Below are positions 1 to 33,500 of a stretch of 51,986 bases of DNA, one piece after another. Every line of letters begins with the position of its first letter. Position 1 is the stretch's first letter. Under the pieces are notes generated by a model that was not told the DNA's origin, did no database searches, and saw only the letters and a program-made list of their open reading frames with translations. The stretch is from NCBI GenBank assembly GCA_026025075.1, contig JAPEUI010000111.1, positions 1 to 51,986 of the forward strand, read 5' to 3'. The stretch comes from Vezdaea acicularis. Lineage: Eukaryota. A program made the translations under genes and the position numbers.

Positions 1-92
1 GAATGCATGGGGAAGCCCTTACAAGCTTCCGCACCCTTCAACCAAATCATCCTAGTGTTCATTGATACAACTTGCTAATCATTGGCGTATAG

Positions 93-1651
93 AACACTTG
101 GATGATTTCAAGTAGTATGATCATCAATGGCCTGTCCTGGTGGCAGTCTTGGATCTGCGTCTGGATCGGGTATTTCATTTCGGGTGCATTCATTTGTCTG
201 ACCGGTCGAATCGGTGCGACATACCATATCAGTTTCCCCGTTGTGACAAGAGCTTCCTTCGGTATCTGGGGTGCTCTCTGGCCCGTCTTCAACCGCGCAG
301 CAATGGCCTGTATCTGGTACGGTGTACAGGCATGGATCGGAGGAGAGTGCGTCACGCTCATGCTCCGAGCCATCTGGCCACAATACAACGATTTGAAGAA
401 CACCATGCCTGCTGGCTCTGGCACGAATACTCGCGATTATCTTGGCTTCTTCCTCTTCTGGCTTTTCAGCTTGCCGGCAATCTGGTTCCCAGTTCACAAG
501 ATCAGGCATCTTTTCACAGTCAAGGCCTACGTAGTCCCAACTGCAGGCATTGCATTCTTCATTTGGGCCATCGTCAAAGCTCATGGAATCGGACCTATTG
601 TCCACCAGCCAAACAAGATTCACGGAAGTTTGCTTGCATGGGGGATGGTTAAGGGTATCATGAGCAGCATTGCTAATTTTGCTACTCTCATTGTATGTTC
701 ATCTCCCTACCTACCTGCTCCTGACTAACCATTCAATAGGTTAACGATCCTGATTTCGCGCGTTTCGCTAGGAAGCCGAGGGACGCATTGTGGTCACAGC
801 TGTTCACTATCCCGTGTGGCTTTGCATTCACTTCTTTCATTGGTATCATTGTATCTTCATCTTCTACCATCATCTACAAGGAGCCCATCTGGAATCCGCT
901 CACCATCCTCGGCAACTTCCTCAATAGTGGCAGCCACGGCAACCGCGCTGGTGTTTTCTTCATCGCCTTCGCTTTTGCGCTCGCTCAACTTGGCACTAAT
1001 ATCGCCGCCAACTCCGTCTCTGCGGGTACAGACATGACGGCACTCCTCCCCCGCTATCTCAACATCCGTCGTGGCGGCTATGTGTGCGCTGCCGTCGGCC
1101 TAGCCATGTGCCCTTGGAACCTGCTGTCGTCTAGCAACAACTTTACCACCTACCTCAGTGCCTACTCTGTCTTCCTCTCCTCCATCGCTGGCGTCATCCT
1201 CTCCGACTACTACATCGTACGCAAGGGCTACTACCAAATCCGCGACCTCTACTCCGCTAAATCCGATGGACCATACTTCTACTGGTTCGGCTTCCACTGG
1301 CGCGGCTACACCGCCTACATTGCCGGCATCCTCATCAATATCGTCGGCTTCGTCGGTGCCATTGGCCGCAAGGTCCCCGTCGGCGCCCAGTACGTCTATA
1401 ATCTCAATTTCTTCTGCGGCCTTATTGTTGCGGGTGGTACCTATATCTTGCTCTGCAAGTTCTTCCCCATACCAGCGACTAGCAAGGTTTGGATGGAGGT
1501 TGGCGATGAGATCACGGATGTCAGTGTTGCATATGGCGTGGGCGACAGCGGCTCGGATAACTACGACGAGGAAATCGCGACGGGCGCCGAGTATAAGGGC
1601 CAGGAGAAGATGGGTGTGCATGAGCGCAAGGGGCATGAAACGAATTTCTGA
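93..1651 (+). CDS. NCS1-family nucleobase:cation symporter (uracil/allantoin permease, Fur4/Dal4-like); 5' end lies outside the window
   Basis: The window starts inside an intron (branch GCTAAT at ~74, acceptor TAG at 90-92). Exons are 93..692 and 740..1651, with intron 693..739 (GTATGT...CTAAC...TAG). Motifs [49 protein letters not shown] and PRYLNIRRG are typical of Fur4/Dal4 permeases. Confidence 0.93.
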
Positions 1652-1966
1652 AGGCATACATAGAGGAGGGCTGGCGTTTGTTCATGATATCACGGTCTTG
1701 TGCGATGTAGTGCTTTTTGTTGGATAGCCAGTCATTCCATAGCGGTCCACGACACAATCTTTGATCATCGCTTCCATGGAGACTCTGCATGCTGTGCGAA
1801 GATGCGCCTAGGCGAAATGATCAGGTTCATGGGCGGACTGATCGTCGGTGTCGTAAGAACCTGCCTGTGTAATGGGAGGTCATTCACTTAACGAGACACA
1901 GCACGTAACGAGTGGCCACCAGTGCCATGAGCTGTTGTGCATGCAACAGGCTGCCATTCATATACT

Positions 1967-2805
1967 GAGCGGTATCCCATAAACTCAGCGAGCCACCATA
2001 CCTCAAACGTCCTCAGGCACATCACCAGCCCCTTATTCCCTCCGTCTGCCACCAATTGTTCCTGCTCGACGTGGTCTTCTCCGTTATCTTCGAGGATGGC
2101 TCATGCCGCCCCTCTCATGGTAGGGATGTAATCGAAGGACCGTTCCCAGACCGCGAGTGTGGAGCCACGTTTATGTGGATGAAGAAGGAAGGAGGAAGGG
2201 TTCTATCTACGAGTCGTGTATATAAATAGTGCCATCACGTGACTAGTTAAGGTTGTCCTAACCCGGTCTGAGCAGGCAAAGGTCGAGGTAATGGCGGACG
2301 CCTCATACTATGGGCGGCCGCTTACAACGGGTGATCGCTCAGGTAATGAGAGATATCCCATACAATCAGCGAGTCACTATACCTCAAACATCCTCAGGCG
2401 CACCACCAGCCTCTTCTTCCCTTCTTCTGCCGCCAATAGCTCTTGCTTGACAAGATCTTCTCCGTGGTCTTGTGGAATGGCTTGCGCCACTTCTTTCGAG
2501 GTCGTATTTGGTCGAATGCGCGGTTCCAGACCGCGGCATGGCTGTTCTCGACAGCGTTGGCTTTAACCGCTGGAAGGGGAGTCGAGCAAAGCAGCGTCTC
2601 CAAAGTCCACTTTGTGACCTAAGACTTCGGGTATGAAGCCAAGTTTATGTGATGAAGAAGGAAGGAGGAAATGATCTATCTACGAGTCGTATATATATAT
2701 ATATAATGAGCGTAGTCACGTGCCTGGTGAGGGTTGCCCGATGCCGTTCGGGCGCCCCGTACTATGAGCGGCTGTTTACAACGGGGGATCGCCCAGATAA
2801 TGAGA
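1967..2805. repeat. Diverged tandem duplication (copy 1 ~1967..2347, copy 2 ~2348..2805) carrying a promoter-like segment and a decayed small ORF on the minus strand
   Basis: Colinear similarity is visible by eye. Examples: TATCCCATAAACTCAGCGAGCCACCATACCTCAAAC vs TATCCCATACAATCAGCGAGTCACTATACCTCAAAC; GATGAAGAAGGAAGGAGGAA and CTATCTACGAGTCGT in both copies; TTACAACGGGTGATCGCTCAGGTAATGAG vs TTACAACGGGGGATCGCCCAGATAATGAG. Confidence 0.9.
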
Positions 2806-3682
2806 TGCCATTCAGAACATGGGAGACGGTCCGGATAGTGAGAGGTCGCGCGTGGAATACTATGGTGGGCGGCTCATGTATTGAGCAAGTCGTTCACGTG
2901 AGTGTAGGCCGAAAGACCGGAGGCGTGGTCAGCCATTTCCAGGCCGGACGCTGGTGATGTCCAAAGATGCCCTACGAGCGCTTGAAGAGCTCAAACACCG
3001 GATGCTCCTGTCACGCTATGACTATCCAATTCGATTTTCACAAGGAGACCTCAGTTCTGCCCGGCTGGGCTTCGAACTTCCTCACGGTATACGGGTGAAC
3101 TCTTACGGCGATGGTGCTCGATACTTTCAAGCCAACGAGGCCAAGACGCGCCAAGGCAGGCGCTGTGTTCTGCCTGAGGTGTCAGGCAAAGAACGGCTCA
3201 GCCGCAGAAACAGGCAGTGACTTGCATGATTGCAATATAAAAGACGCAGCGTTTCCCGTCCTGAGAGCAGGCTCTCGATCACGTACGTGGCCGCGATTGG
3301 CAAGAGAGTGCCAGCAGGAGGAGCGTCGAGGAGGTACTCAGTCACATTGTCAGGCCCGGAACGACATCGGTGCAGGCTGCGCCCGAAAAGCGCTGGCCGC
3401 AGTCGCGCCAGGGCACGGTGATGGCCGATGCGAGCCTCGCGCTGGGAGGAGTCGGACAGTCAATCCTGCAAGGCTGCCGTATAGGCAGCCGCCATGATGA
3501 GCGCCGACCGGAGCGCCGACCGATGTGGTTGGCGCAATGGCGAGGGCGGTGTGGCTTTCTGCCGGCCAGGGCATAGCCACACCCCTCGTCCGCCCCGATA
3601 AAGTGGAGTCTCGTTCAGCCTCATCATGGCCTGAGGCCTCCCCGGTTAGCACGATGCATGTCACTGCGCTGCTGTGCCGCCC

Positions 3683-3713
3683 GCACGCCCAGCACGCCCA
3701 GCACGCCCAGCAC
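3683..3713. repeat. Short tandem repeat (GCACGCCCA)x3+
   Basis: cgcacgcccagcacgcccagcacgcccagcac lies just upstream of the predicted C2H2 factor start. Confidence 0.85.
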
Positions 3714-3769
3714 TTCATAAACTCTCTGCCCCTCGCCGTGTAGATATTATTGAACCCTCTTTGGCCACC

Positions 3770-6164
3770 ATGGCCGCCTCAACGGAACACTGTTCTGCCA
3801 TGAGACCACCTTTGTTTCTCCGCGCCATCCGCTTGGTGTGCTTCATCACGAGTCTGAAGAAGTGCGCCAAGTCGAGACAGCAAGTCGAGAGTTCGCTCCT
3901 CAGCTCACGTGGTCGCATCTCCAAGGACGTCGTCTACTCCGCCATCGAGAGACGCGTTTCCAAGTCGTATGTGTACAATTCCAGTTCCTTGGCCGGAGCT
4001 TGCGCGTCCTGATGATGACCTCCGCCTCTAGACAGCTCCGACCCTCCCGAGACGCTCCGCTCAGCGACGCCCGCGACGCTCATGTCGCTCAGCATGTGAA
4101 TACGGGGATGTGGGTCAATCATATACTTCCGTTGCCCACCGAAGGTTCCACTAACGGGGTCTACTAGGCTCCTTCGAGATATTGATTCACACACGAGGAC
4201 TTCTCGCGGCCCCGCCACGTGCGTTGCTTCGAGCTCAGAGCTCCTCGTCGAAGCAAAGCCGTCTCTCGCGAGGATCTCGAGCGATGCGCATCGAGCGCGG
4301 GAGCTACAGGACACTAAGCTTCGCCTCGAGAGTCTCCGCAGACTGAAACAGGACGCGAAGACGTGGGAGACGAGTAATCAGGACGCAGGAGCAACCAAGG
4401 ACCTCCAGGACCCCACTTTCGTTGCAAATCTAGAGCACCTGCTCCTCCGACATCTCCAGGCCCTGCTGAATTTGATCACCATCACGATATGGACCTACCT
4501 ATCGCTCGTGGCGTGCGTCGCGCACCAGCTCTTCGGGGACCGCTGGTACTCTGAATGGGCCGATCGGCGGCGCCTGCTGTCGACGAAAATGCCATGGAAT
4601 ATCAAACCAAGCCTAGTGGTGCTTTGGGGGGTATGCTGGATGTTCGCAATGAATCGCGATAATATCAAAGTGCCCCGCACTGTTTTCTTCCCAGACATTC
4701 TGACAGTCTTTGACGACGATAACAATCAAGGTTTGTTCAACCGATTTAAATCATGTGACGCGACTTGCAGTAACATGCTGATTCTTTTAATAGGCAACGA
4801 TTTGACATACCCGTTGCTGGAGTTCGAGCACGAGCACCAGCCACACCAGACCGGTGTTCAGGCGGCGAATTCTTATTTTCCTAGCGTCGGTCAGCAGCAA
4901 CAAGCGAGCCGGCCGCGTCATGACTCACCTAACGCGAACCCCGGACCGGGGTTCGGGGCGACCTCAACTGCCTATGCCGATGCTTTCCCGGATCTAAATT
5001 TCAATTTGGCGCCTGACGCTGAAACGCCTTATGGCAATGACTTCTCGAATGCGTCGGGTACATATGGAAGTCATACCCCCCATGCGCATGCCCCCCAGAA
5101 CTTCTCGCCACGTGACGCGTCCTACTCTGACAATACAGGCCTCGACGCCACTTTCCAAGGCCACCTCCTCCCGAGGACTCATGCCAGGCCGCCGCTACAA
5201 TATAATAGCAACGTACCCAGGCTCGAGCTGCAGGTCCCATCCGTCCCCCAATTTACTTTACAAAGCCCTTCGGCGCACTCCGCCCGCCCCTTTACCTTTT
5301 CTCCTGATGATATAAGATTTTCTCTCCAGCAAAGCTTTCCGGAGAACCCTTACACCGAGTTTCCGATGCCTCCTACCGCACCGCAATATCCACTTAGCCC
5401 TGCATCGGATTACTCGAACAAAGGCACAGATATGTCGCCGTTCACTCATGGAGACTCGGCCGTCAGTCGTGCCCAAACAGGGACTCCCTCGGGAAAGTCA
5501 AGCGCTTCAGATCATACACCAGGATCGGGGGGGAGAACAGAGCAAACCCCGCCGAAAGACCAAGACGGCCATCTCTACTGCGACCATCATGAATGTCGAA
5601 ACCTCGCGTCCGTCCCTCAATTTAACCGGAAGTGTGAATGGAGGTTAGTAGTCCTTTCCTTCGCTTATTTTCTTATCTGAAGCTTATTAACATCCTTATC
5701 ACAGAAAACACATGGATAAGCATACACGTCCATACACGTGCAAAGAGCCTGAATGCGCCAAGTTGCAAGGCTTTACGTACAGCGGTGGTCTCCTCCGCCA
5801 CGAGCGAGAGGTCCACGGCAAGCAGGGTGGCCCGAAAGAAGAGCTGCACTGTCCACATAGCCGCTGCAAGCGCTCAACCGGCAAAGGGTTCACACGCCGC
5901 GAAAACCTGAACGAGCACCTCCGCCGAGTCCACACCGACGACCAGCCTGTGGTCGGCGAGTCCGGCGAGCCGGCCCTGAAGAAGGGGAAGAGGAAGCGCA
6001 CTTTGGAGGGTGAGGCCGATGATGGGGACGAGATCGGAAATGGCGATGTGAAGGCGGAGTTCAAGCGGTTGAGGTCGGAGAACGAGGCGCTGCGGCGCGA
6101 GATGGATGCGCTGAGGGCGATGTTCCAGGAGTCGGCCGCAGCGAGGAATTCATCCAGAGCTTAA
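3770..6164 (+). CDS. C2H2 zinc-finger transcription factor (3 fingers, basic NLS, C-terminal coiled coil) with a hydrophobic N-terminal extension
   Basis: Predicted exons are 3770..3966, 4032..4109, 4168..4730, 4794..5643 and 5705..6164. All introns are GT-AG, 58-65 nt long and phase-compatible. The fingers read YCDHHEC..RKCEWRKHMDKH, YTCKEPEC..GFTYSGGLLRHEREVH and HCPHSRC..GFTRRENLNEHLRRVH; KKGKRKR is a likely NLS. The 3' two exons are secure; the first three are less so. Confidence 0.85.
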
Positions 6165-9100
6165 AGAAGGAGGTTTAATTTGGGGAACATGGGTTTCTCT
6201 TTCTGTTCTGTCGTTACTACGGGAGGCTTTTTTTTTTTTGCGTCATTCCGGGATTCCACGGCAACTCCTCCAATTCCTCAGACTGGCATAGCGAGCGGCG
6301 TTTCTCTGGCGTCCCAGTTTTTTCAAGGGGATATCTGGGTTTTCTGGGTTTTGCTGGACTAAGTTGCACTTTCATGCATCATGGAATTGCCCCAGCTCTT
6401 GGATTTCTTACGCCCATTAGATAGATTGTCTCGATAGAGCGCACCTCTTCCTCTTCTCTTCTTTAGGATACCCCCCATCACACAATTTCACTCTCCTTAA
6501 CAAAACAAATACATCACCACCCTTCCTCTCATACTTGATCACTATCCTCACATCACCGCCACCATATCCAGCACGCCAGAGCCGCACTCCCCTCCCCCCC
6601 AAAATCCATGAAACCGTGACTCCATCTTCATACAGTAGGCAGCCTTGCCTCCACCCAAGGCCCCCACTATCTACTAACCGACCAATCATACGCATGACTC
6701 AGCTTCCAGCCGCAACACCTCCCCCTAGAGCTAGTAGGCAGGCTGCACCTCGAATGAGCCGCGCATACCCACTCATTCCTCCGTCCGGCGGAGTGTGCCC
6801 TACGGTATCCCCCGCCTTCAGCGACGCATGTATCTGGTTATGGGCTCTGCCGCGCAAGGAATCGAAACATGACTGTTGTGCTGGCGGGTACAGTGGCGTG
6901 AAATGTCCTATTCGTCTGGGACCACCGCTCACACCCTCTCTCAAGCACAAGAGAAACCACATCACCAAGCCGGAGCAAACCGACCGACCGGCCGACTCAG
7001 CTATACCGCAACCCGGGGACTACGAGACTGCACGACGAGCCCGGCCAGGGCTCAAACCCTGTCCTCCCGGCCAATCCCTCGCCGCTTTCATAGATATACA
7101 TAATCTATGACTCGCACACCCCAACTACACCCTCTCTCTATGCCCTCTCTTTCTCCTCGCCGTTCGTTCGGCCCCACCAGAAAAAACAAAGTATTCGCCG
7201 CAATCAGCCCACACACCGTCCGCGGCAACCACCGCATCTTGGCCCCAACGCGTCTCGGAACATCGGCGGATCGCGTCGAGTGCGCGCGGGCATGTGACTC
7301 GGAGCGGACTAACTCATGTACTCTAGCCGTTTTCAGGCGGCGCTAAGCGGGTTAGTGCAGCTCTGCTGGGTGGCGCGGCAGAGGAGTCGATGTCGAAGCG
7401 TCACTGATATGCGAAAAAGGATACTGGGTGAGTCAGTCGGTATGGATGGGCTAGGGTGATCGATGGATCGATGAGTGGATGGATGCATCGATGACTGGGA
7501 CCAAGCGGGAAAATACTCGTTCGGGGTTAGAGCCGCGCCCTGGCCTGGATGCGATCATTGCTCTCGGCTTTTGTTGGAGGAAGGAGGGTGTGGCGTCTGC
7601 AGGGGAGGATGTGGGTTCGGACTTGAGACCCTTGAAGGGTGTTGGGCTCGGCCTGGGTTGGTTCAGGCGGGTATGGGGGTTTATTTTGCATGTGTTTCAT
7701 GCGGCATGAGGTTGGATGGGTTTGGCGTATGGCTGGACTTGAGGGAGTGTGTACGATGGCTGGTTTAATGGGGGAGCTCCCGTTGCGCAGATGAAGGCCC
7801 CAAGAAATGGAATTTTTTTCGTGTTGTGGACTGCCTCGCATTCTATAGTTTGGGAATTGTCCGCCGTTCGCACTATTCCGTGCTGAAGGACAGTGAAGGG
7901 GCGGGAAAAAGGCAGTGGCTGTCCTACGGTTAACAACAAAAAGCCCATAAACGCCCTTCTCTAGGTTTACTACTTCGATGGTAACTGTGGTACATTTTCA
8001 AGTGCAGCTGATGGTAGTTTATATAGCCAAAATACGACCATGACAGTGATAAGGCCTTGTCAGAGGCTGATGGAGAAACTATCGTCCATAACAAGGACAA
8101 TAGCGAGGGATATCGAGTGATGACTGTCCAGAAGTCACAGAGACGAGCGGTGACTGACTCGCGATTGAAATGGGCGGTATTTGAAAGCAATTCACGGATA
8201 GAGGGATGGAGAATGGAGACACAGTCCCTCATATACAGTGGCTAACTATTGTAGAGCCAGATTCCCGATGCAGTATTGGCAATTCACGATACAGGGAGCC
8301 CTTCAACATATGGGCGACTTCTTATCTCATGGGTGAAGTCTAGTCGTTTCCTCTGGAGCAAAAATCACAGTGGAAGTCTGCTTGTTATCTCTTCTACGCT
8401 GATGTTGGTTGGAGCGATCCGGAAGACTAGCTTCAATTAATGGGCTTGAGGCTTTCTATATCATTTGATCCGGCCCAACGCACATGCTCTTATCCAGCCA
8501 CCTCCTGCACATCCACTCTATCGAAAGCTCAAGAGTTCCCCCAGTTCCCTTGTGGCCTCCGACCAGCAATCAGTCGATGTGGTGGACCTCACTGGCGATT
8601 TGATTGCCAGGTGTGCTATGATCCTCTAGATGGTACTCGACCTTGTCACCAACTTTCAACATGGTGTCTCCCGGACCACATGGCCAGTATACTCTAGAAA
8701 GACGTCAGTCAAGCCATCTACAAGACTAATAGACACTTACGTAGTGTAATCCTCTGCCATGATCTGTACACCCTCTTGCACTGGAGTTCTCATCAGTAAC
8801 AGTGCAAGGAGGCACTCAAATAGCCACTCAACAAGGGTAGAGTCATGTGCAGTAGCGAAGGATGCCATCAAAGATCATGATAATGCGAATTGGGGAGACA
8901 AGCTGCAGGCTCGGGGATCATACTATTCCTTGGGTCTGTCAGCGCTACCTATCAAGCGGATAGGGGGTTCACTACGGTTTATTGCTTGGGTTCTTGAACC
9001 CCTGAAAAAACTCGTACGTCAGCTTTTGCTATGGCAGAATCATCATTTCTACGTGAAATGGAAGCTCAATGGCGTACGGAGACTCGTCCAATAGGCATTT

Positions 9101-9613
9101 TGATTGCACGGGTTATCGTGAATTGTTGGAATGAGACTTGAAGGTCCGAGGGTGAATCGAGTGCTAAGGATTCGAAGCGCTCTACAGAGATAATCTGCAG
9201 CTTTGTGACTGGGAAACTCGTCAAATCTATAAGGTTTCACTGCTTGGTCTTTATCCCTGGATTTTAGTGCTTTTAGGCCGCTGAGGGGGACTACTATTGT
9301 CACAATAGTTCGAGACCCCGGTGTGAAACCCCGTAAATGCACCCCAAGCCAATCTTCGGCATCTCCACTGCCCCTCCACTTCTAAATTAGTTCAGGCAGG
9401 TTGAGGAAGTAGGCCGATCGGCTTTGTTCGAGACCTCAAATGCCGTTCGAGACGCAAGCCACCATATGCAGCTAACGAGTTAGACTCGGAATGGTGACCT
9501 GTCAGACTGAAGCCGAATCCCGCATGGCTTTCGGACCAATCCAACTTCGTACCTCTTGGTCTACACTTGATTGGACTTTGCGAGCATCTTTGGACAATTT
9601 TCACTCTTTCAAT

Positions 9614-10471
9614 TCACCTGGCATCGTACTTCCAGCGCTGATCTCGAGCGACCTTTGCTTGCAGAGTCCGCCGAATCCATCCATGTTTTCCATCTTCCTT
9701 TACTCCTCCCATGATTTCGTCTCCATCTGTTTGCTCGTCTTGTACTCCCAAGCAGATGATTTTAGCTTTGTCGTGGCATACCGTCCAAACTTCCAAATCG
9801 AACTCGCCCTCGCTTTCAGCTAACAGGAGCCCTCCATGCGACGAGAAAGCAAAGACGTGGATCGATGTGGCTTCATTCAACAAACGTAAGCCCTGAAGTT
9901 CTCTATAATCGCCTTGGCCATTGGCGGCGATAGCAGTGGCATTGAAAGTCATGGAAAGTGGGAGTGATGTAGAGAGAAGAGCGAGGATCGACGTTTGAAG
10001 AAGTGCTGGGAGAAGCTGGATGCCCTTCGGAAAGGTTTAGCTTTCAGACTTATTATATGTATACTCTTATATCTTACTGAGACTGGTAGTGGATATTCAT
10101 CCTCGTTCTCAGGCGTGGCCGCTATTTGTAGAGTGACTTGAATCAGCGTTCGAGGATGATTCTGTACGAGAATGATATGCCTGAGTGTAGAATGAATCAA
10201 GCCCTCTAGGTATCTTTCACAGACACCTATCCATGATTGTTAGCTTGATACAGATATGGGATTGTTCAAAAATACCTCCAATTCCGTTCGCAGGTCGTAC
10301 AAGGACTTCAATAGTAGCTTCGTCTGGGATTTCGTCTCTTCGCAGGACCTCTATCGGTCCATTCACAGAACCGATCACTCTGTAACCATATTCAGAGAAG
10401 ACCGCAGATCCATCCGCATTTGGTAATACTGAGAGATCAGCAAATGTCTCAAGCTCCTCGCCAAAGGACAT
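9614..10471 (-). CDS. RRP46: Exosome complex RNase PH-like subunit Rrp46
   Basis: Exons 10471..10276, 10226..10078 and 10024..9614 join in frame. Motifs include LSVLPNADGSA, SVNGPIEV..RDE.P..ATIEV.VRP, HPRTLIQVTLQI, S.HVFAFSS and LLLAESEG.F. Confidence 0.92.
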
Positions 10472-10670
10472 TCTGTCAAGTTGTATTTGGAATGTGGAGC
10501 TTCCTGAGTGAACGCGGTCGGCAAGGCTTTCCTACACGCGACGCGGAGAAACTAATCGCCGCACGGCTTATACATTCCTCCCGATGGCACCACAGGCCTC
10601 CAGGGACACCAGCTCAACTAGCAACTGACAGAAAACAAGCTCTTGTATTCTAACGACTTGAATAGATAAT
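10472..10670. promoter_or_regulatory. Compact bidirectional promoter between RRP46 and RRD2
   Basis: The divergent ATGs are only 199 bp apart, and the interval contains ACGCG cores (10512, 10536, 10541). Confidence 0.6.
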
Positions 10671-11951
10671 ATGGAGCACTACACAGCATCTCCGCAAATT
10701 CCGAACAACCCGTCAAACCCTTCTCATAAACTACCCCGCCTTACCCCTCGGCGCAGACAGCCTACTCCACAGAATCCTCTCCCAGTCCCCGAAACCCCCG
10801 AGCTTGCTCAACCTCCAGCTAGCAATAGTATCACCTTCTCACACCCTAGACGCCGTATATTATCACCAACAGACCATACACTATTCCTCGAATCCCCGAC
10901 TTATAAGCTCGTTCTGTCTTTCATCTTCACCCTTGCCGAATCTGTGACCGACACGCCGACTTCTGCAATCAAAGACTCTGATCTAAGTCCTACGGTACAA
11001 CAGATTCTCACAGTTCTTGAAGATTCCGAATGCCTCCTAGCAGAATACATACCGAAAGACCAAGGGGGCTCCCGCTTTGGCAACCCCCGTTTCCGTGATT
11101 ACCTGGACGGGCTTGGAACTAAGCATGCGGCCTGGCACAAGTCTCTTGGTGTCTCGGATCCCGCCGCTATTGAAGAGCTCTCGACTTATTTTATGCAGTC
11201 CTTTGGTAACCGCACACGCATAGATTATGGCTCTGGACATGAGCTCAACTTCATGCTGTGGCTTCTCTGTCTATATCAGCTCTCAATCCTGAAGCGCGCT
11301 GATTTCCCTGCCCTTGTCCTCCGCATCTTCACACGCTACTTGAAGTTTATGCGCCTTATACAGTTAACATACTACCTCGAGCCTGCAGGTTCGCACGGTG
11401 TATGGGGCCTCGACGACTACCAATTCCTGCCCTTCCTGTTTGGATCGTCGCAGCTACTGCATCATCCATACCTCCGGCCTCGTGTAGTCAACCAACAGCT
11501 CGAACTTGATGAGTACGGGCGGGATTACATGTACCTAGATCAAGTAGCGTTTGTGAATAGCGTGAAGAACGTGGAGGGACTAAGGTGGCACAGTCCGATG
11601 TTGGACGATATTTCAGCGAGCAAGAGCTGGGAGAAGGTGTACCAAGGCATGAAGAGAATGTTTGTCAAGGAAGTGCTGGGGAAGCTACCAGTGATGCAAC
11701 ATTTCCTCTTCGGATCCTTGATAGCAGCAGAGGAGGGAATGGGTGAGGAGCAGGAGTCTGAAGGGCAGGACGGAGAGAGTCCAGAGGGAGAAGAAGTTAT
11801 AGTGATGAAGGACGGCATGAAGCATGTTCACACTGCAAGCAGCTGGGGCGACTGTTGTGGCATCAAAGTGCCGAGCAGCATCGGTGCAGCACAGGAGATG
11901 AAGAAAAGAATGGGTGGAGACGCTGGATTACGGCGCGTACCCTTCGATTAG
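10671..11951 (+). CDS. RRD2: Serine/threonine phosphatase 2A activator (PTPA), Rrd2/Ypa2 type
   Basis: Intronless 426-aa ORF with SRFGNP.FR, SFGN.TRIDYGSGHELNF, YYLEPAGSHGVWGLDDYQFLPFLFG, WHSPML.DIS and EVLGKLPVMQHF, plus the C-terminal WGDCCGIKVPS...PFD seen in Rrd2. Confidence 0.95.
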   Translation: MEHYTASPQIPNNPSNPSHKLPRLTPRRRQPTPQNPLPVPETPELAQPPASNSITFSHPRRRILSPTDHTLFLESPTYKLVLSFIFTLAESVTDTPTSAIKDSDLSPTVQQILTVLEDSECLLAEYIPKDQGGSRFGNPRFRDYLDGLGTKHAAWHKSLGVSDPAAIEELSTYFMQSFGNRTRIDYGSGHELNFMLWLLCLYQLSILKRADFPALVLRIFTRYLKFMRLIQLTYYLEPAGSHGVWGLDDYQFLPFLFGSSQLLHHPYLRPRVVNQQLELDEYGRDYMYLDQVAFVNSVKNVEGLRWHSPMLDDISASKSWEKVYQGMKRMFVKEVLGKLPVMQHFLFGSLIAAEEGMGEEQESEGQDGESPEGEEVIVMKDGMKHVHTASSWGDCCGIKVPSSIGAAQEMKKRMGGDAGLRRVPFD

Positions 11952-12160
11952 CACGTATCTAGAGCACCAAAAATAAAAGATATATGCCTGATTGAACCAA
12001 CACGCTTGCTCGCTCGCTCGCTCGCTCGTCCATGAGTTGTAAAAAGACCATATGCAAAAGCCCCTCGCATATACAACTTCCCTAACATTTCCCCCAAACA
12101 CACGAAGTAAAGGCCCACTACCACATATGCAACAACCCCCAACCCCTCCTCCCCACCTCT

Positions 12161-12664
12161 CTATCCCCCAATACTCTTAACCCCAAACTCCTCCTCACTC
12201 CACCTGCCCAACGCCTCCGCCGCCACCACATCCCCACTCCTCAAAAGGCCTCCAACCTCGACATTCAGCGGACTCTCCCACTCCGGATGGCCCAACAACC
12301 AATGGACCGCCTCCAAGGACGCCACAAGCGTGTACGCCGGGGTCCACGCCTCTTTCAGCAGATCGAGGCAGATCTCGCCCGTTTTGGGGTGCACGTTCGC
12401 GTGCGCTACGGGGACGCTGAAGGTGATGGTTGGTGCGTGTAGAGGGTAGTCGGAGGGTATTGTGAGGTGGAGGGGGAGGAGACCTAGGAAGGTGGGGTTA
12501 GTCAGTGCGTGGATAAACACATTCCAGGGGGGGTGGCTACCTCCGTAAGGCCCGAGTAGCAGGGCTTCCCAGTGGAAGAGGTTGTCGTTTATGAGGCGCA
12601 GAGAGGGGATTGTGGCGCTGGGTTGGTAGTCTTGGAGTTCCTTCTGGAGGCGCTTCACAGCCAT
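12161..12664 (-). CDS. PEX4: Ubiquitin-conjugating enzyme E2, peroxin-4-like
   Basis: The start is MAVKRLQKEL at 12664, with exons 12664..12541 and 12483..12161 (57-nt intron with CTAAC branch point). The UBC core is YPL.AP.ITF...HANVH.KTGEICLDLLK.AWTPAY, and SPLNV....LLR.GD is typical of fungal Pex4. Confidence 0.85.
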   Translation of the reverse strand: MAVKRLQKELQDYQPSATIPSLRLINDNLFHWEALLLGPYGGSHPPWNVFIHALTNPTFLGLLPLHLTIPSDYPLHAPTITFSVPVAHANVHPKTGEICLDLLKEAWTPAYTLVASLEAVHWLLGHPEWESPLNVEVGGLLRSGDVVAAEALGRWSEEEFGVKSIGG

Positions 12665-13011
12665 GGCGGGTAGCTTGGGGGGTTTACGGGGCAGAAAAGG
12701 GGCGCCGCAAAATGTCTGGCGGGGCGCTTGGTGGTGGGCGTTAGAGGAGCTTTTGGGTGAGGAGCTTGGGGCAGGTAAAATGTTGATGCGTTGGCGATGC
12801 CGAGGTTGGAGCGGGTTTTGTTTGTCTTCGTTTGCATTGATTTCATCGAGGCATTCATGATCGCTCCCTACGATGTGTATCACCATTTATTTGCATCAAA
12901 ACTGGATTACACAGCAATTAGCAGAACTATACCCTCATAGTATCATAGACGTAATCGTATCTAATACCGCTAATATTCAATAGCTAACCCAAACAAACCT
13001 CCTCATGCCCA

Positions 13012-16671: not shown

Positions 16672-18834
16672 TTATCCGGCCCTCCTTCTGAAGAATTCAA
16701 TAACGGTGCCTAACCCCTCGCTCACTTCCACCGCTTTGGAGACTTGTTCCGCACTCAGTCCCGTCCCACTCCCGTGCCCATCCTCCCCGCTTGTCGTTTC
16801 ATCATCGGCTACGATGATATCCCCGTGAGACCCTACGTGGATGATAAAGTCGACAGGCTGAGCATGATTCGCGAACGTGACGCCGATTTTGGGCGTCGGC
16901 TGGGCGGTGAATGTGAGGTCCACCTTTAGCGTCTCGATGGATGGGGTTCGTGGCGGGTGAGTGGTGCCGGTGAGGATGAAGGCGGAGAGTTCGTCGGGGA
17001 GAGTCGTTTCGTCGTGGTCTTCCCGCTCTGGGGCATTTTTCGGTTCGGCCTGATGAGCGGCGGCGTTGACGAGGGTCTGGCGGAGGACGGTGACTGCGGC
17101 GACGTTTTGGCGTAGGATCTATGAGGAAGGGTTGTCAGCTGTTGTGGTTGTAGAGATGGATCGCTAGAGACAGGGACTTACGGGCAGGATCTCGACCAGC
17201 TGTCTAGGGTGCGAGAAGGGTATCTCATCGATGACCTTCCCGTAATCCCGTTTCTGCACACACAAGTTATATTGATGAAGCACCTTTATCAGCGCCCCGT
17301 CTTTCTCGTACGCAGAGACGACCCTTTCCGTTTTGATCTCGCGCACATCCCCCTCCAAACCCACGTCTTCAAAGTCTTTCCGTGGGAGGACCAGTTCGTC
17401 GAAGATGGGCACGTTCTCGTCCGAGCCGCTTGGGAAGCCAACGGCATTGAAGAGTTGGAGAGCCACGGGTAAGGGAACGACGACGGGGGGTTCCAGTCGA
17501 GCTACGAATCGGACGTTGGGTTGTTTCCCCAGTAAGGCCGCGTCACCTTGCATCCCTAGATCGCCTGAGGTGTCGGATATGAGGGTTGGTAAAGGCTCTT
17601 GCCAGTTGATAAGGGGGGTGTTCATGGTGGACAGCATGTCCGGCTCTTGCTCGATGTTGTCTGATAGCCATTGGTCCGAGACTCGTACCGGCGGGTAGAG
17701 TTCTGCTGGTGAGGCCTCGCACTCCACGACAAGCGACCATATAGTAGGGTGACCGGCAGCATGATCTGCATGGTTTGTAGCTTCTCCGTTCGAAGTCATT
17801 GTAGTATCGCCGTCTTGATCTTTCCTCGGGGTGCTGGGCACTAGTCTCCGCTCCATCCAGTATTCAAGCCTTAGGCCAACCGTCCGGTCGCCATGCATAA
17901 CCGGCCTGCCCGACTTCTTGCACAACACCTCCCTCTCCGCATATTCCTCGTCCGAGAATGCTTTGCCGCCGTGCCTCTCACCAGCCCATCCCTCCTGAAC
18001 CTTCCTCTTCTCATAGTCAAACAACCTCTTCAGACTAGTGTATATCCCCGCAATTGCCGCATAGCAATCAAGATCCGGCTGTACACTCAGCTTATCCAGC
18101 CTCGCCAGCCGTTCCAGATTCTCCCCGAACCGTGCCAACGAGGTATTGATACTCGCCACACCCGGGGGCGGCGTCAAATCCCTCTTCAAGATGCGCGCCG
18201 CGAGGGGTACCGTCGCCGTGACGGGCTCCGGCGATCTAGGAAACGAGAGGTTGACGGCCGTCACGACATTACTCTTGAAACACACCTAAAAAGCGCTTTG
18301 GTTTAGTCCGTGCTGCTTTCGCGTGTGAAAAAAGTCGCGAGCATGTATGAATACCTCAATAAGCAGCGAGCTCCCCGCAATATTCAGCGTCCTGGCCCCA
18401 CCCTCAGCATCATCCTCCCAGAAGAAATCCAACCCCGTCCTCTTCGCCAATGTGACCACGCCAGCCTCGCTGATCCGGACCTGACTCCTCGCCAGCCGCG
18501 CCAGGATCATCTCGATCCTCCTCCTCCGCTCCTCGTCATCCGGCCTTGACGCAAAATGCGGGATGCTCCCGACATTCTGGAGGTGCAGGTTCAGACCTAG
18601 GGCAGCGGCGCTCGGTGAATCGAAGTTCAAGGCGCTGTTGTTGGTGCTCCCGGTAAGGTGCTGCGTCGAAGTGGCGTTGGCGGGGGACTTTTTTGCGAGG
18701 TAGGCCGGTGATTGAGCGATTGATCGCGGACCCTGTGAGCCTTGGCCGGCGGGCGAGAAGGCGGCGAGGTGGTTCGCGAATGAGCTGGGAGTGGTTGCTT
18801 GGAAGGCTGATTTGGAGGGCGTGGGAGTAGCCAT
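16672..18834 (-). CDS. MED1: Mediator of RNA polymerase II transcription subunit 1
   Basis: Exons 18834..18355, 18285..17182 and 17118..16672 join in phase 0. Motifs typical of fungal Med1 include MATPTP, FDSPSAAALG, L.IAG..L.IE, NLERLARLDKLS, GRPVMH...VGL.L.YW and EIPFSHPRQLVEILP.LRQ. Confidence 0.9.
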
Positions 18835-28900: not shown

Positions 28901-30566
28901 GGGTTGGTGCAAAGACCGCGCCAGGACCCGATGCCGATGAAACATTGCCCACGATCACATCTGCACGTCAGAATCGTGGTACCTCGATGTCTAAGATCGG
29001 GGGTGAGGGTGGAGAGGACGTGACAATGCGATACTCCGCCATTCGCCGTCAGACTGGGCTCATTGTGTCCATCGCTCTCGACTGCTTCTGCTCACGGTAG
29101 CCTTCTTCGGCAGCTCGTCCAGCCTCCGCAAACGCCTCCGCCCGATGAAGCGGCGGCATCGACGGCAGAAAGCTGCGCTAAAGGGCTCTCTCCGCGACCG
29201 GATAACCCGACAACCCCCCCCCCGCAAGGTGAGCGCGAGGGGAGCGCACGAGCTGGCTGGCCGCATCCTCCCGCATCCACGACCTTTTCTGGCACCTGCG
29301 TCCACCCGCTCGCGATGCACCAATCCGCCCCTATCGTCACCCTCCCTCCGTCGCGACGCGAGGAAGAAGAAAGGAAGACGTGAAGGTTGGAGGGTGTGGG
29401 AACGGTGAGGGACCAGGCCCGAGGCCAGCAAACAGGTCCATTAGAGGGCTCCCGTTGGCCCGTCGCCATCATCGCGCTGGCCCTGACATCCTAATCCAGA
29501 GCCCCAGCCAGCCCACTCCACGTCTGCGACCACCCTTTTTCCCCAGTCGGCCAATCGCATGACATTGCGCAACCCTCCATTTTCGACGTTTATGCTGCCT
29601 CAACCCATCCTTTGCCCTCTCATCAATCGGTGATCTGAGCGTGATGCCACCGCTCGGCCAGAGCTGATTGCCCAGCGCCCCCTTGCGCGTTGTCTCCCCT
29701 TTTTTGCTCCAGCACTGTAGCGCGCGCGCCGTGAATCTTCAGGTCCGAGATGATCTCGCGGCCGACCCGCACGCCCGCGGACGGATACAAGGAGACCGGG
29801 CTAGAGACGGAAGGGTGAGCAGCGTGGGAGCGCCGTCGAAAGAATACGGCTGATCGAATAGAACGCCCAGAGGCCGGAGAATGCTAAGTTGGGATTGGAT
29901 GCGCCCCGCCCCCCCTGCCATGATCGACCTGGGAAGCGCAATCAACTCTGTTCATCGCTTTGGCTGGTCCGTCCGTGACTAGTAGCGAACTTTTGCGAGG
30001 TCTCGTTCTAGCCTAAAGGAACGCCGAGCAACGCATCTCATACCCCAAAATCCTCTCCCGTGCCATCACCATCCGCCATTTCCTGCTCTTTCACCAGCTT
30101 CGTCCGCTCTGCATCACCATCGCGGTGCAAGAGCAGCCACATCGTCCCATTCAGCGCCCCTCGAGAACACCGAGTGCCCGTCATCAACACGATCTTGCTC
30201 GGTGGTGCGGCGCACTGCCTCCTCCGCGAGAATCCCACCGGCAAATCGCCGAGAGTGCGGCCCAATCCAAATTTTCCCTGCAGACGTGCGTTTGCTCTAT
30301 CATCGGTCTCACGGGCGTCAGTCTTCGAAGACTGGCAAGGCTTTTATCCGACCGGCCGCTAATTGGTGACATAGAGACCTGTTTTGTTCACTTTCACCTC
30401 ACAGTCTTCCCTTTTCCGCTCGTCGATAGTCCGAGCGCACGGCGAGTCGGTAAATTGCGTGTCCAACCACAAAATAATACCAATAGCTCCTTATTCGACT
30501 CGTCGAATGTCACCCTAATACGCAGCCTGACCAGCCAACTTCCTGGCGCTCCAAGCTACTCTTGCC

Positions 30567-33500
30567 ATGGCTACGGCTGAGGTGAAAAATAATTCACGAC
30601 CGGAAGGTCTTGAGATTGCTTCACCACCTTTGGCTCGAGGTCCAAGTTCCTCGAGCGATCGCCCGTCACTATCACGCTACCCATCCTTAATGTCACCGCC
30701 AGCAGCGACGAGTCCTGAGGCGGCCTACATCGCAGCTTCAGCAGCTTCTCAAATCGTGAGCAGCCATCATGATGCTACTGCCCAAGACTTGAACGAGCAC
30801 GACATTGAACCCTCCGGCGAGACGGCATACGTATCGCCGGGATCACTGAAACTAGTGAATTCTTTCCTAGATCAATTGCTATACAACTTTCTCTCGGTTG
30901 CAAGGTCTACGTCGCTCGCCTCACTACGACCAGCAGTGTCCGAAGTTCTGAAGCCAAAGTTAGGCAGGGAAGCGATTACGGGCGCGGATCAAGAGCTCCA
31001 TGAGTATCTAGGAGGTGGGGCGGATGAAGAACTTCTGACGTTCCATAATGGCCAGGAACCAACGGGTGACTGGGATCTGGAAGCCGTCTGGAAGCGTACG
31101 CGACTACGGTGCATGGTTTACTCGTCTCTTGGCGACCTAGAGGAGGAGGATGAAGACAGGTTTGCCGATGAAGAAAGCTTTGACGGTGGCAATGGCGCTC
31201 ATGGACATGTGAGAAATGCTCCGATTATCGTTTCTCCTGCGGTGGCCATCTTCTTGACTTCCATCCTCGAATTCATTGGAGAACAGGTCTTGACCGTTGC
31301 AGGAAAAGCTGCATATAACCGTGTTGCAGCTGCAAATTTGGCGAACGACCAACCAGCGCAGTCAGAATATCAAAGCGAGATTGCGGATCGTGTAGTTATC
31401 GAAGAGCTGGATACCGAGAAAGTTGCAATGAACCCCACCCTTGGCAGACTCTGGAGAACCTGGAGGAAACGTCTGCGGTCTCCGTCGTTATCCCATGCCC
31501 GACAAATCTCTACCGATTCTTATAAGCGTAATTACCAGCCGAGTTATGCTGGTTCGAGCCGAAGGAGTAGCATCGATAACGCTGAAAACACGACTGACGT
31601 TATTTCGCGCGGTTCACTTGCCGAAGTACCAGAAGAGGATTACGCCGCATATATCCCTCTTCCAGTATCACAAAATGACATCGAAGAGATCGAAGTACCT
31701 GGGCTCGTGAACATGGACGATACGGATGATGAGAGCGTACAGACTGAAGTAGCGCCACCTATGAGGCGTAAAAGCATGATTGTGTATCAGTCTAGAGATC
31801 TCGATTTGGCAACACCAACTACTTCTACTCGCGAAGAGCTTAGGGATTCACGGCAAACCTCTGCACCTGATAACGGACGTGCACGATCCAAGTCTACTCC
31901 TGCTCCTCAACGACTTCCGCTTGTTCTCGATAGTGAATCATCACAGGCGGAAAGCGCTGACCCAGAGGCCGTGGATGCCGAAGAGATTGACGAGGCTCAA
32001 TTTGTGACCCCTATGGAATCATCCGATCCTATGAATGCTGTAAAGATCGACCAACTTACTTCTCTTCCTAAGGACGGAGTTCCAGAAGACGCAGATGAAG
32101 CTTCTACCCCCACTGGACCACCCAAAGTCTTGGATGGTAGAGAAAAACCTTCCGAGACACATCACACTGAGGGTGACAAAGACGAGGCATCAACATTCAG
32201 CCCAAGTAAAGGCCTAATCGGCGGCATGATCACTGGTACAGCGGCCCTTGGCGCCGCAGCCGTAGCGGGTATTACTGGTCACAGAAAGCGAGAGAACTTG
32301 GGGTCTGAGACAAGGGAAGAACCCAAGCAAGAGGAACCCAGGGAGCTAGAAGTCGCCTCTAAGCCAGTGTTTGATCCTGAAAGGCATGACGACGATTTTG
32401 AAGAGGAGCCTGAAATAATGGAGTCGACCCGGATGTCTGTTGAAGCTCCCCGCACCCCTGAAATAGTTCAGACTCGTTCAAGAGCCGCTTCCGCTGCTGC
32501 AATGCATGCTCAGATGGTTGCGGATGACGAGGCCAATGCTCACCACGGAGCTCACGGGCTCGGCATCCATGACAACAATCTCGAGTTCGTGGACGAAGAT
32601 CCTTCAGCCATTGGTGTTGCCCGGACGTCTAATGTCTCTATGCCAGCCATCACACTACCACCTTCTCCACGTTCAAGCAGCGGAAGGCCATCACCTGAGC
32701 AAAAGAACGTTGAAGCTGTTCGCAATGGACACGATGGTTTGAACTCGGGTTCAATCATAGTTCATGAAGTCCGTGACGACTCTGTGGCCCAAGACACTCA
32801 AAAGCCCCGCTTTGTCCTGGCTGCTCCGCCCGCTTCTCGCAGAAGTCCAGGATCTACCTCTCCAAATCCGGATCAGTCATCGCTCGTGCCATCTGGCAAT
32901 TTAGCGCCAGTATCCAAGACCCCAGGCGCTGAATATGGCGTCCCGCCATTGACACCGCTTCGAGAGATGATGGAAGCAGCTCATGATACCTCCGATGAAG
33001 CAGACTCCATCACCCAAAGCCACGACGCTACCGCTTCCGAGCCTAGCTTGCATGCTGTGCCGACAAGTATTGGGCATATTCCACAAGACTCAATCGCGTC
33101 CTCGAATTATTCCCATGCACAGCAGTCCTCCAACGCTAGCAGCATGTTTCCAGAAATGCAGAACCAGATGCCTCCAATGCCTATAGGTACTGCTTCCGAA
33201 AGAGCTGGAGTTCAGCGAGTATACACACCACCAATCACTCCTCGAGATGCTCCAAATGGGACGGTCCGTAGATCGGACAGCCTCTCGAAAGAGAACAGGC
33301 AGATCTATACTTCTGGATCACAAGGGTCTCAAGTCTCAAACAAACTAAAGGGCCTTATTGGCCTTCCCCAAGATAATCCAGACAAGCCTTTGCCGCAGCT
33401 TCGAACGTCCGAGGACGATTCTGGCAGTGCAGGTAGCGCAAGACACGCACAGGTCGGCTCCAAAGCTGCCGATAAGGAAGAAAGCTTTGAGCAACTGATC

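Follow-up and report, generated by a model that had tools for sequence, protein, structure and literature searches.

The SREBP-type transcription factors of fungi (Sre1, SrbA, SreA) are tethered to a membrane through hydrophobic segments until proteolysis sets them free (PMC12926077, PMC4336317). Mga2, the lipid-saturation sensor of yeast, has one anchor helix in which the bulky W1042 is functionally critical, a W1042L variant being partly active; its release is attributed to Rsp5 ubiquitylation and proteasomal processing and not to an intramembrane protease (PMC7005026). The bulk of Nrf1/NFE2L1 (Skn-1A, CncC) is described as starting in the lumen of the endoplasmic reticulum (ER), with retrieval by p97 and a cut by DDI1/2 or the proteasome (PMC12285602). 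In XBP1u, a mildly hydrophobic region 2 and an arrest peptide ~52 residues downstream with critical Trp and Pro residues act during translation (PMC6624018). Here we describe a gene in a stretch of 51,986 nucleotides (nt) of Vezdaea acicularis DNA (GenBank assembly GCA_026025075.1, contig JAPEUI010000111.1, positions 1 to 51,986 of the forward strand), to which we refer as the window. The gene (3770-6164, plus strand) consists of five exons that join in a single open frame of 2148 nt, that is, 715 amino acids (aa) and a stop codon. It is an intact member of a large, unnamed and uncharacterised C2H2 zinc-finger family of the Pezizomycotina. The gene kind itself is known; what is new is that this C2H2 factor carries an N-terminal module which is undescribed and exceptionally conserved. 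This module contains a Trp/Pro-rich loop followed by a near-invariant segment of 19 residues (19-mer or motif; MPWNIKPSLVVLWGVCWMF in the window). From the sequences and a structural model, we tentatively favour the view that the loop and the 19-mer act together as an autonomous hydrophobic unit for anchoring or docking, one that probably sits at a membrane.

The family consensus of the 19-mer is (W/M/F)PWN(I/V)(K/R)PSLxVLWGVCWMF, and the segment is present without gaps in 197 of 204 stored relatives. L9, W13, G14, V15, C16 and W17 are unchanged in all 197, in a collection retrieved with a pattern that fixed P2, W3 and C16, permitted alternatives at W13, G14 and W17, and left L9 and V15 free. 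Variation is tolerated at position 4 (N/S/T/A), position 6 (K/R), position 10 (V/A/L) and position 18 (M in 186 sequences, Q in 6 and K in 5). Upstream, W-15, F-14, E-12, P-5, L-4 and T-1 are the majority residues in 85-96% of sequences, while a Tyr follows F19 directly in 142 sequences and gives way to variable polar sequence thereafter. This stretch holds six to seven Trp in ~35 residues, with aromatics at both ends of the motif. Mean pairwise identity among 24 full-length sequences is 0.88 for the motif, 0.54 for the helix that begins with ANLEHLL, 0.53 for the loop, 0.32 for the N-terminal helix, 0.19 for the first hydrophobic segment and 0.18 for the sequence after the motif. With a value of 0.67 for the finger region (model residues 556-650, from inside finger 1 to beyond finger 3), the 19-mer is conserved more strictly than the DNA-binding fingers. 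The invariant residues, together with the near-invariant F19, are spread over every helix face, which points to protein contacts, and not lipid alone, around the helix. One relative from Thelocarpon superellum (P0182) carries a degenerate motif, TWPWSDVKVSVMILYGVCWKF, in which W13 is replaced by Y and an insertion is present; the same fingers still follow downstream.

At the DNA level, we found 46 distinct versions of the 19 codons among 78 loci and the window, with all synonymous codons in use for Pro, Gly, Val and Leu. Between these versions, the mean pairwise differences per site amounted to 0.149 at the first codon position, 0.115 at the second and 0.502 at the third. Since third codon positions vary freely, selection acts on the peptide. 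For the same reason we rejected a functional RNA or DNA element at this site. A peptide fixed at each residue while its synonymous codons vary freely is also what a regulatory nascent peptide would leave behind, in which the loop and 19-mer (~35 residues, roughly the length of one ribosomal exit tunnel) would pause the ribosome or recruit the signal recognition particle. The abrupt end of conservation after F19 and the following Tyr fits such a role; Trp and Pro are critical in the XBP1u arrest peptide (PMC6624018), and an internal arrest peptide within a coding region is known for CGS1 (PMC3083191). We nevertheless consider this explanation highly improbable, because nothing is conserved at a fixed distance downstream of the motif, where identity falls to the value given above, so as to bring the hydrophobic helix out of the ribosome while it pauses, and because a uniformly apolar helix is atypical of known arrest peptides. 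An NLR-type amyloid signalling motif was likewise set aside, in our judgement, since the composition is unlike that of such motifs and no paired gene was seen.

The docking unit that we favour belongs to one kind of transcription factor. Using tblastn, we found the finger region of the window 1.0-1.5 kb past the motif, on the same strand, in all 47 loci with more than 2.2 kb of downstream sequence; the remaining 33 of the 80 loci in all had too little sequence there. Since all 47 carry the same fingers, the motif marks one transcription-factor family and is not shuffled among DNA-binding domains. Further features define the family, and the window gene displays them: the basic helix, the ANLEHLL helix, the WFxEWPxGRxPLSTT loop and the 19-mer occur in this order, three fingers follow 250-400 residues past the motif, and an intron lies after the CEW codon of finger 1. 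We next to this searched the 86-aa module (window 4418-4675) without an index against 1.84 billion cluster representatives, which returned 489 representatives at E<=1e-3 and 39 at E<=1e-10. The closest match is P0081, a 743-aa protein of Vezdaea aestivalis (55% identity, E 3.6e-19). A 491-aa read-through of exons 3-4 matched 36 proteins at E<=1e-3, of which 15 carry PF26176 and seven also PF26177 in precomputed annotation. The Pfam copy used gave neither model, even with orthologues so annotated; on the strength of the finger identity to orthologues, we infer that the fingers of the window group with those of PF26176/PF26177 proteins. The orthologue models, 640-880 aa in length, hold both the motif module and the fingers. 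An alignment-based family search among proteins of 1802-5000 aa found no member.

The best 150 of the 489 matches were inspected and 30 of them given names; all named members are annotated as 'hypothetical' or 'C2H2-type domain-containing'. Class membership was checked for eight species. Members are found in the Lecanoromycetes (Xylographa, Trapelia, Caloplaca and others), in the Candelariomycetes, Coniocybomycetes, Geoglossomycetes, Xylobotryomycetes, Vezdaeales and Thelocarpales, and, with Pyrenula, in the Eurotiomycetes. Many more are Dothideomycetes, namely Alternaria, Plenodomus, Massarina, Cladosporium, Aureobasidium, Friedmanniomyces and others. Glutinoglossum is another genus with members of the C2H2 family. 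No Sordariomycetes, Leotiomycetes or Eurotiales appear among the named members, for which the best 150 of the 489 matches were covered and 30 of these named. One match, P0082 (1029 aa, POF08162.1), is filed under the cork oak Quercus suber and probably represents fungal DNA that ended up in a plant assembly.

A sequence-only reading of the window had suggested that such a motif recurs upstream of DNA-binding domains in uncharacterised Pezizomycotina proteins, and that it could belong to an undescribed module. The recurrence is borne out by the 489 representatives, and the conservation of the motif by the homology search and the ungapped 19-mers of the stored relatives; it is far beyond chance and selected at the protein level. 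The module also corresponds to no Pfam family in the copy used and to no paper that we found. Two further ideas did not hold up. The motif had been suspected to be linked to different DNA-binding domains, whereas the same C2H2 region follows in 47/47 loci and only the N-terminal side differs. Initiation at M4589, the first residue of the motif, had been considered as a source of isoforms; at this position we found W in 151, M in 33 and F in 13 of the 197 19-mers, which does not support such a start as a family feature.

The N-terminal side was informative in its own right. In five of the 83 longer proteins scanned, ankyrin repeats replace the hairpin that precedes the loop in the window, and what these ankyrin forms have in common with the window is limited to the hydrophobic helix, the loop and the motif, at 50% identity across 70 aa (E 1e-18). 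In P0157, P0190, P0194, P0165 and P0197, the hydrophobic helix and the loop-motif follow upstream sequence unrelated to the ANLEHLL hairpin. The ankyrin forms and fragments are environmental gene calls that end ~20-60 residues past the motif. In the window as well as in the forms with other upstream contexts, the helix ahead of the unit is strongly hydrophobic. Because these forms carry helix, loop and motif in unrelated contexts, the unit appears to be autonomous. At E<=1e-4, no Pfam model covered the N-terminal module or the 19-mer in 78 of the 83 proteins, and the other five matched ankyrin repeats only. The environmental ankyrin proteins P0026, P0028, P0029, P0112 and P0202 end in the hydrophobic helix, FFFEWPDGxRLLSTT and MPWNIPPSLLVLWGVCWMF; P0202 has an R at the otherwise invariant G. 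In these five, the gene calls break off ~40 residues past the motif.

The N-terminal module of ~250 aa consists of a basic helix, a long predicted antiparallel hairpin whose second helix starts with ANLEHLL, the loop and the 19-mer. In the arrangement that we tentatively propose, the unit of loop and 19-mer would set where the transcription factor sits. Its short apolar helix would be gripped on all sides by a conserved partner, most plausibly in or at an endomembrane. In the window, the motif may pair with the preceding hydrophobic helix as a hairpin, which would put the N-terminal domain and the fingers both on the cytosolic side. Release would occur by cleavage or extraction inside the ~290-aa Pro/Ser-rich linker, and not by intramembrane proteolysis. 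Docking to a membrane or a partner, the topology and any release step are what we infer from these patterns. A stronger version, in which the loop and 19-mer are an undescribed membrane-embedded anchor (a short helix or hairpin with a conserved partner) for the whole C2H2 family of Dothideomycetes, lichen-forming classes and relatives, with the finger-bearing part released by regulated cleavage or extraction in the linker, is possible, yet we regard it as doubtful.

We analyzed the predicted structure of the exon 3 piece (window 4169-4729) with AlphaFold2, using 145 aligned sequences. The model reached a mean predicted local distance difference test score (pLDDT) of 80.5 and a predicted template-modelling score of 0.64. 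Within residues 1-122, small N-terminal elements lead into a long antiparallel hairpin with helices at 39-66 and 82-122; both helices score above 90, and the block means of residues 1-122 lie at 80-96, most of them above 90. The first hydrophobic segment is the C-terminal half of predicted helix 82-122. The loop scores 62-72 and the motif helix (residues 147-165, from Pro-Ser on) 66-73, so that the motif helix is not confidently packed into the hairpin. Foldseek against the PDB returned nothing at E<=1e-3, the top rows being CorA chains with E 0.75-1.4. In VIA, the best second-look result was CorA 4ev6_A (Z 7.0, 93 residues, root mean square deviation 3.8), and the wide search gave at best PspA (Z 7.7, 85 aligned, root mean square deviation 3.4) among generic helical hairpins; both are within the noise of the tool for helical folds. 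We claim no relation to CorA, PspA or ESCRT-III, as all fold matches lie within the stated noise. PF01544 (CorA) matched none of 76 members at E<=10, a PDB sequence search with the module gave chance-level matches only and no CorA chain, and a protein atlas search gave no usable match. Pfam yielded nothing above its cut-offs on four exon pieces, and at E<=10 only weak zinc-finger and coiled-coil models among the 76 members.

These data bear on the idea that the 19-mer lies buried as a helix within a soluble N-terminal domain for regulation or oligomerisation, packed in cis or in the core of a homo-oligomer, with no membrane involved. Invariance on all helix faces, Gly and Cys included, would suit such an interface, as would the conservation of the ANLEHLL helix and the loop along with the motif. 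Moreover, the confident hairpin could provide a groove, the conserved exon 1 helix was missing from the fold, and the zipper-like helix at the C-terminus suggests that the protein probably oligomerises. What makes the idea unlikely in our view is the moderate score of the motif helix despite the depth of the alignment, the ankyrin forms and fragments, which keep helix, loop and motif without the ANLEHLL hairpin, and the nature of the helix, since 13 residues that are apolar all round are hard to bury in a small bundle. Indeed, the motif helix is uniformly apolar and not amphipathic, with a hydrophobic moment of 0.03 and a mean hydrophobicity of 0.76.

A Kyte-Doolittle mean of at least 1.6 over 19 residues is the usual threshold for a canonical transmembrane helix. 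In the window, the first hydrophobic segment reaches 1.93 and passes, while the motif, at 1.19, fails. The preceding helix of the Vezdaea orthologue, at 1.56, lies just below the threshold. Two such segments in one protein fit the classical membrane-tethered factor that the sequence-only reading had proposed, in which the 19-mer, with or without the preceding helix, would span the ER or nuclear membrane until a rhomboid, signal peptide peptidase or site-2 protease frees the fingers. The octanol-scale sum is favourable in all 143 members (-4.7 to -11.9 kcal/mol), helix-perturbing Pro-Ser and Gly are invariant within the motif, and aromatics stand at both of its ends (W3 and W17/F19/Y+1). The top Foldseek rows, although not significant, are CorA chains in which a stalk helix leads to a TM1-loop-TM2 unit with both ends cytosolic. 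Even so, a classical span is unlikely. None of the 143 motifs attains the threshold, their apolar run is 13-14 residues, and the first helix resembles a transmembrane helix in so few members that most would have a single span, with fingers and N-terminal domain on opposite sides; the charges do not favour a cytosolic C-terminal side. Simple lipid-facing anchors are rarely invariant on all faces, and the likeness to CorA is within noise and has no sequence support.

Several of these observations also weigh against the membrane part of the docking unit that we favour. Motif values range from 0.62 to 1.57 over the 143 members, so that 1.6 is reached in none, and the unbroken apolar run measures 13 residues in 70 of them and 14 in a further 34. 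The preceding helix is transmembrane-like in 11 of 143 members, the window included, and charged and amphipathic in most orthologues, which speaks against the hairpin as a family rule. Flank charge is weak, averaging +0.54 before and -1.7 after the motif, and is higher before it in 131 of 181 members; taken by the positive-inside rule, this would leave the fingers on the non-cytosolic side. Inspection of an alignment of 23 orthologues revealed no N-terminus that resembles a signal peptide, and invariance on all faces may fit a soluble protein-protein interface equally well. The fold omitted exons 1-2, and the missing helix could account for the moderate confidence of the motif. Additionally, the 80 loci were retrieved by the pattern WGVCWMF, so the invariance of the last seven residues in them is partly ascertainment, and the protein match sets were likewise retrieved through the motif region. 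On the membrane-tether reading of the motif, points stand on both sides. Some role at a membrane is favoured by the helix itself, which is apolar throughout, rich in Trp and without amphipathic character, by the octanol-scale sums, and by the strongly hydrophobic helix ahead of the unit in the window, in the Vezdaea orthologue and in the forms with other upstream contexts.

The gene model is the basis of all these comparisons (Table 1). The DNA of the window is of a fungal type (G+C 0.54), and all four introns begin with GT and end with AG. A stop-to-stop frame of 526 codons (4100-5680) covers the sequence from the ANLEHLL helix through motif and linker as far as the first half of finger 1; because it is unbroken, motif and fingers form one coding sequence even without splicing. 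No upstream in-frame ATG is found within the stop-to-stop frame of the start codon (3650-4012). When the spliced model was aligned with 23 full-length orthologues using MAFFT, the N-terminus (MA...) and the exon 1 basic helix lined up, as did the opening of exon 3 (LLRDIDSHT...VASSSELL) and, beyond it, the ANLEHLL helix with loop and motif. The orthologues therefore support exon 1, exon 3 and the putative start codon, and splicing and the transcript start are predicted from splice signals and homology. In place of exon 2, a single in-frame intron of 201 nt (3967-4167) may be present. The position of intron 4 is common to all five loci, the window included, whose frame reaches finger 1, with GTxAGT starting 2 nt past the CEW codon. 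Elsewhere, 49 of 58 distinct related loci have a stop in the motif frame at 33-443 codons past the motif, from which we conclude that the linker of related loci holds introns. Unlike in these 49 loci, retention of intron 3 in the window would add 21 residues (LFNRFKSCDATCSNMLILLIG) and cause no truncation. A 9-nt unit, CGCCCAGCA, is repeated in 4.1 tandem copies at 3678-3713, ~60 nt ahead of the start codon, where a 5' leader or promoter is presumed, and no Rfam family matched at E<=0.1 within 3000-7000.

That the upstream exons are a separate gene, or that the transcript begins past the motif, is barely conceivable given this frame, which holds the motif and the first half of finger 1, and given the deposited orthologue models with both parts. 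Order, strand and spacing are also the same in 47/47 loci. Furthermore, a pattern like the N-terminal helix occurs 746-868 nt 5' of the motif in 18 of 38 distinct metagenome loci and on the minus strand in none of the 38; the window, at 813 nt, falls within this range. With five exons, sequence that had appeared as junk 5' of a shorter zinc-finger open reading frame is assigned to the gene. Here the sequence-only reading proved right: its three 5' introns (introns 1 to 3) join in frame, and the upstream exons belong to the zinc-finger gene by shared frame, orthologue alignment and the same order in 47/47 loci. The two hydrophobic segments begin where it had put them, at 4463 and 4589, and the acidic linker, the Pro/Ser-rich region, the three C2H2 fingers, the cluster resembling a nuclear localisation signal and the coiled-coil-like helix were all found in the translation. 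Two hydrophobic segments as a family feature did not survive, the first being transmembrane-like in 11/143 members with an identity of 0.19. Overall, the gene extension, the conservation and the undescribed status stand, and the different DNA-binding domains, the family-wide pair of segments and the M4589 start do not.

Table 1. Positions in the window of the zinc-finger gene, its parts and neighbouring genes.
Feature	Position	Strand	Remarks
Exon 1	3770-3966	+	start codon in CCACCATGGC context, N-terminal basic helix; from the join and the orthologue alignment
Basic N-terminal helix LFLRAIRLVCFITSLKKCAKSR	3812-3877	+	conserved in orthologues
Intron 1	3967-4031	+	65 nt, GTATGT..TAG; from splice signals
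Exon 2	4032-4109	+	78 nt, in variable linker; predicted from splice signals, region aligns poorly
Intron 2	4110-4167	+	58 nt, GTGGGT..ACTAAC..TAG, with ACTAAC branch box
Exon 3	4168-4730	+	helical hairpin, Trp/Pro-rich loop, motif; from the join and the orthologue alignment
Start of second hairpin helix FVANLEHLLLRHLQAL	4418-4465	+	ANLEHLL helix
Hydrophobic pre-helix LLNLITITIWTYLSLVACVAHQLFG	4463-4537	+	first hydrophobic segment; begins LLNLITITIW
Trp/Pro-rich loop DRWYSEWADRRRLLSTK	4538-4588	+	family consensus WFxEWPxGRRPLSTT
Near-invariant 19-mer	4589-4645	+	begins MPWNIKP
Acidic stretch FFPDILTVFDDDNNQ and GNDLTYPLLEFEHEH	4685-4837	+	spans intron 3
Intron 3	4731-4793	+	63 nt, GTTTGT..TAG, in frame, stop-free
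Exon 4	4794-5643	+	Pro/Ser-rich linker, first half of finger 1
Finger 1, CX4C...HX3-4H (C2H2-type)	5576-5723	+	across intron 4; from translation
Intron 4	5644-5704	+	61 nt, GTTAGT..CAG, within finger 1
Exon 5	5705-6164	+	remaining fingers, basic cluster, C-terminal helix, stop codon
Finger 2, CX4C...HX3-4H (C2H2-type)	5733-5816	+	from translation
Finger 3, CX4C...HX3-4H (C2H2-type)	5844-5933	+	from translation
KKGKRKR basic cluster	5979-5999	+	like a nuclear localisation signal; similar K/R clusters in orthologues
Heptad-like C-terminal helix	6048-6131	+	resembles leucine zipper/coiled coil; from translation
Purine/cytosine permease	93-1651		neighbouring gene; two frames split by intron
PTPA	10662-11951		neighbouring gene
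Mediator subunit Med1	17164-18285		neighbouring gene
Snf1-type kinase (UBA, adenylate-sensor)	36865-39147		neighbouring gene

In the translated protein, the two hydrophobic segments occupy residues 191-251 of 715, and ~230 residues precede the motif. The N-terminal 32-aa block averages 7.4 K+R and 1.3 D+E in 23 non-redundant full-length members, and the exon 1 helix of many Dothideomycete members contains an RRRxKPR cluster. This strongly basic helix may serve as a second nuclear signal, bind membranes or target the protein to an organelle. The A, N and L of the ANLEHLL helix reach at least 90% conservation in the family alignment. The first 50 aa after the motif have a net charge of -6 in the window, and the linker of 289 aa contains 12.8% P, 10.4% S and 6.9% Q. 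Conserved short linear motifs are absent from the linkers of 34 sequences, which include near-identical Alternaria entries (PPxY in none, LPxY in two, YPx(L/I) in six). The fingers gave weak PDB sequence matches to C2H2 proteins, with REF6 as the best (E 8e-4). KKGKRKR is a putative nuclear localisation signal by its sequence, and the C-terminal helix has weak Pfam matches below the cut-off (HALZ, E 0.0096; ZapB in 7 of 76 members).

The neighbouring genes are of the housekeeping kind and do not form a biosynthetic cluster. None of the 53 flanking open reading frames (window 1-3700 and 6200-13000) matched any of 80 related loci, and neighbours are held in common only among closely related loci. 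A stop-to-stop frame of 1498 codons on the plus strand (30531-35027) had no Pfam match at E<=1e-5.

We found no published description of the motif strings, of PF26176/PF26177 or of this family, although subscription journals could hold one. Such constraint on a short, Trp-rich hydrophobic helix in a transcription factor implies a hitherto unknown, very conserved partner or environment. The fungal classes across which this conservation holds include major plant pathogens (Alternaria, Plenodomus), as well as black fungi that live on rock and most of the lichen-forming lineages sampled. If the environment is a membrane, the motif would belong to a new membrane-to-nucleus signalling route in filamentous ascomycetes; with a soluble partner or the ribosome in its place, the motif would still give access to an unknown step of regulation. 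Either way, the module merits its own family definition.

Among described proteins, the three-finger proteins of fungi covered by PF26176/PF26177 share with the window the DNA-binding region and the position of the intron in finger 1. The two models cover the fingers only, and not the N-terminal module. SREBPs combine an N-terminal bHLH-zip with two true spans and a C-terminal regulatory domain. The window protein resembles them in having two hydrophobic segments between two soluble parts. It differs in that its DNA-binding domain is of the C2H2 type and lies C-terminal of the segments, the hydrophobicity of the first segment is not conserved and that of the second is below the threshold; no bHLH or SREBP-related Pfam match was obtained on any exon piece at E<=1. 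A release of the Mga2 kind would suit a Trp-rich helix with a long linker such as that of the window. The anchor helix of Mga2, however, is at the extreme C-terminus with the active part N-terminal of it, whereas the window segments are internal and six core positions of the motif never vary. IPT/TIG and ankyrin matches in Pfam were absent from the window exon pieces, and no sequence relation to Mga2/Spt23 was found.

As in Nrf1, the hydrophobic motif of the window lies N-terminal of the DNA-binding domain, and the example of Nrf1 illustrates that a finger side that is initially non-cytosolic is not impossible. Nrf1 is a metazoan CNC-bZIP factor with its anchor at the extreme N-terminus, unlike the window motif with its long N-terminal extension, and the two have no sequence relation. 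XBP1u is similar in placing a mildly hydrophobic helix and a Trp/Pro peptide within a transcription-factor frame, and differs in that the family of the window has nothing conserved downstream of the motif. The internal MTO1 arrest peptide of plant CGS1 serves as a further model for a nascent peptide (PMC3083191). CorA, with its long stalk helix leading to TM1, an outer loop and TM2, serves as a picture only: of the simple topologies, this is the one in which N-terminal domain and fingers of the window protein would both stay cytosolic. Should the embedded anchor that we regard as doubtful turn out to be true, the family would form a third class of fungal membrane-tethered factor beside SREBP and Mga2/Spt23, with an anchor under stricter conservation than its DNA-binding domain.

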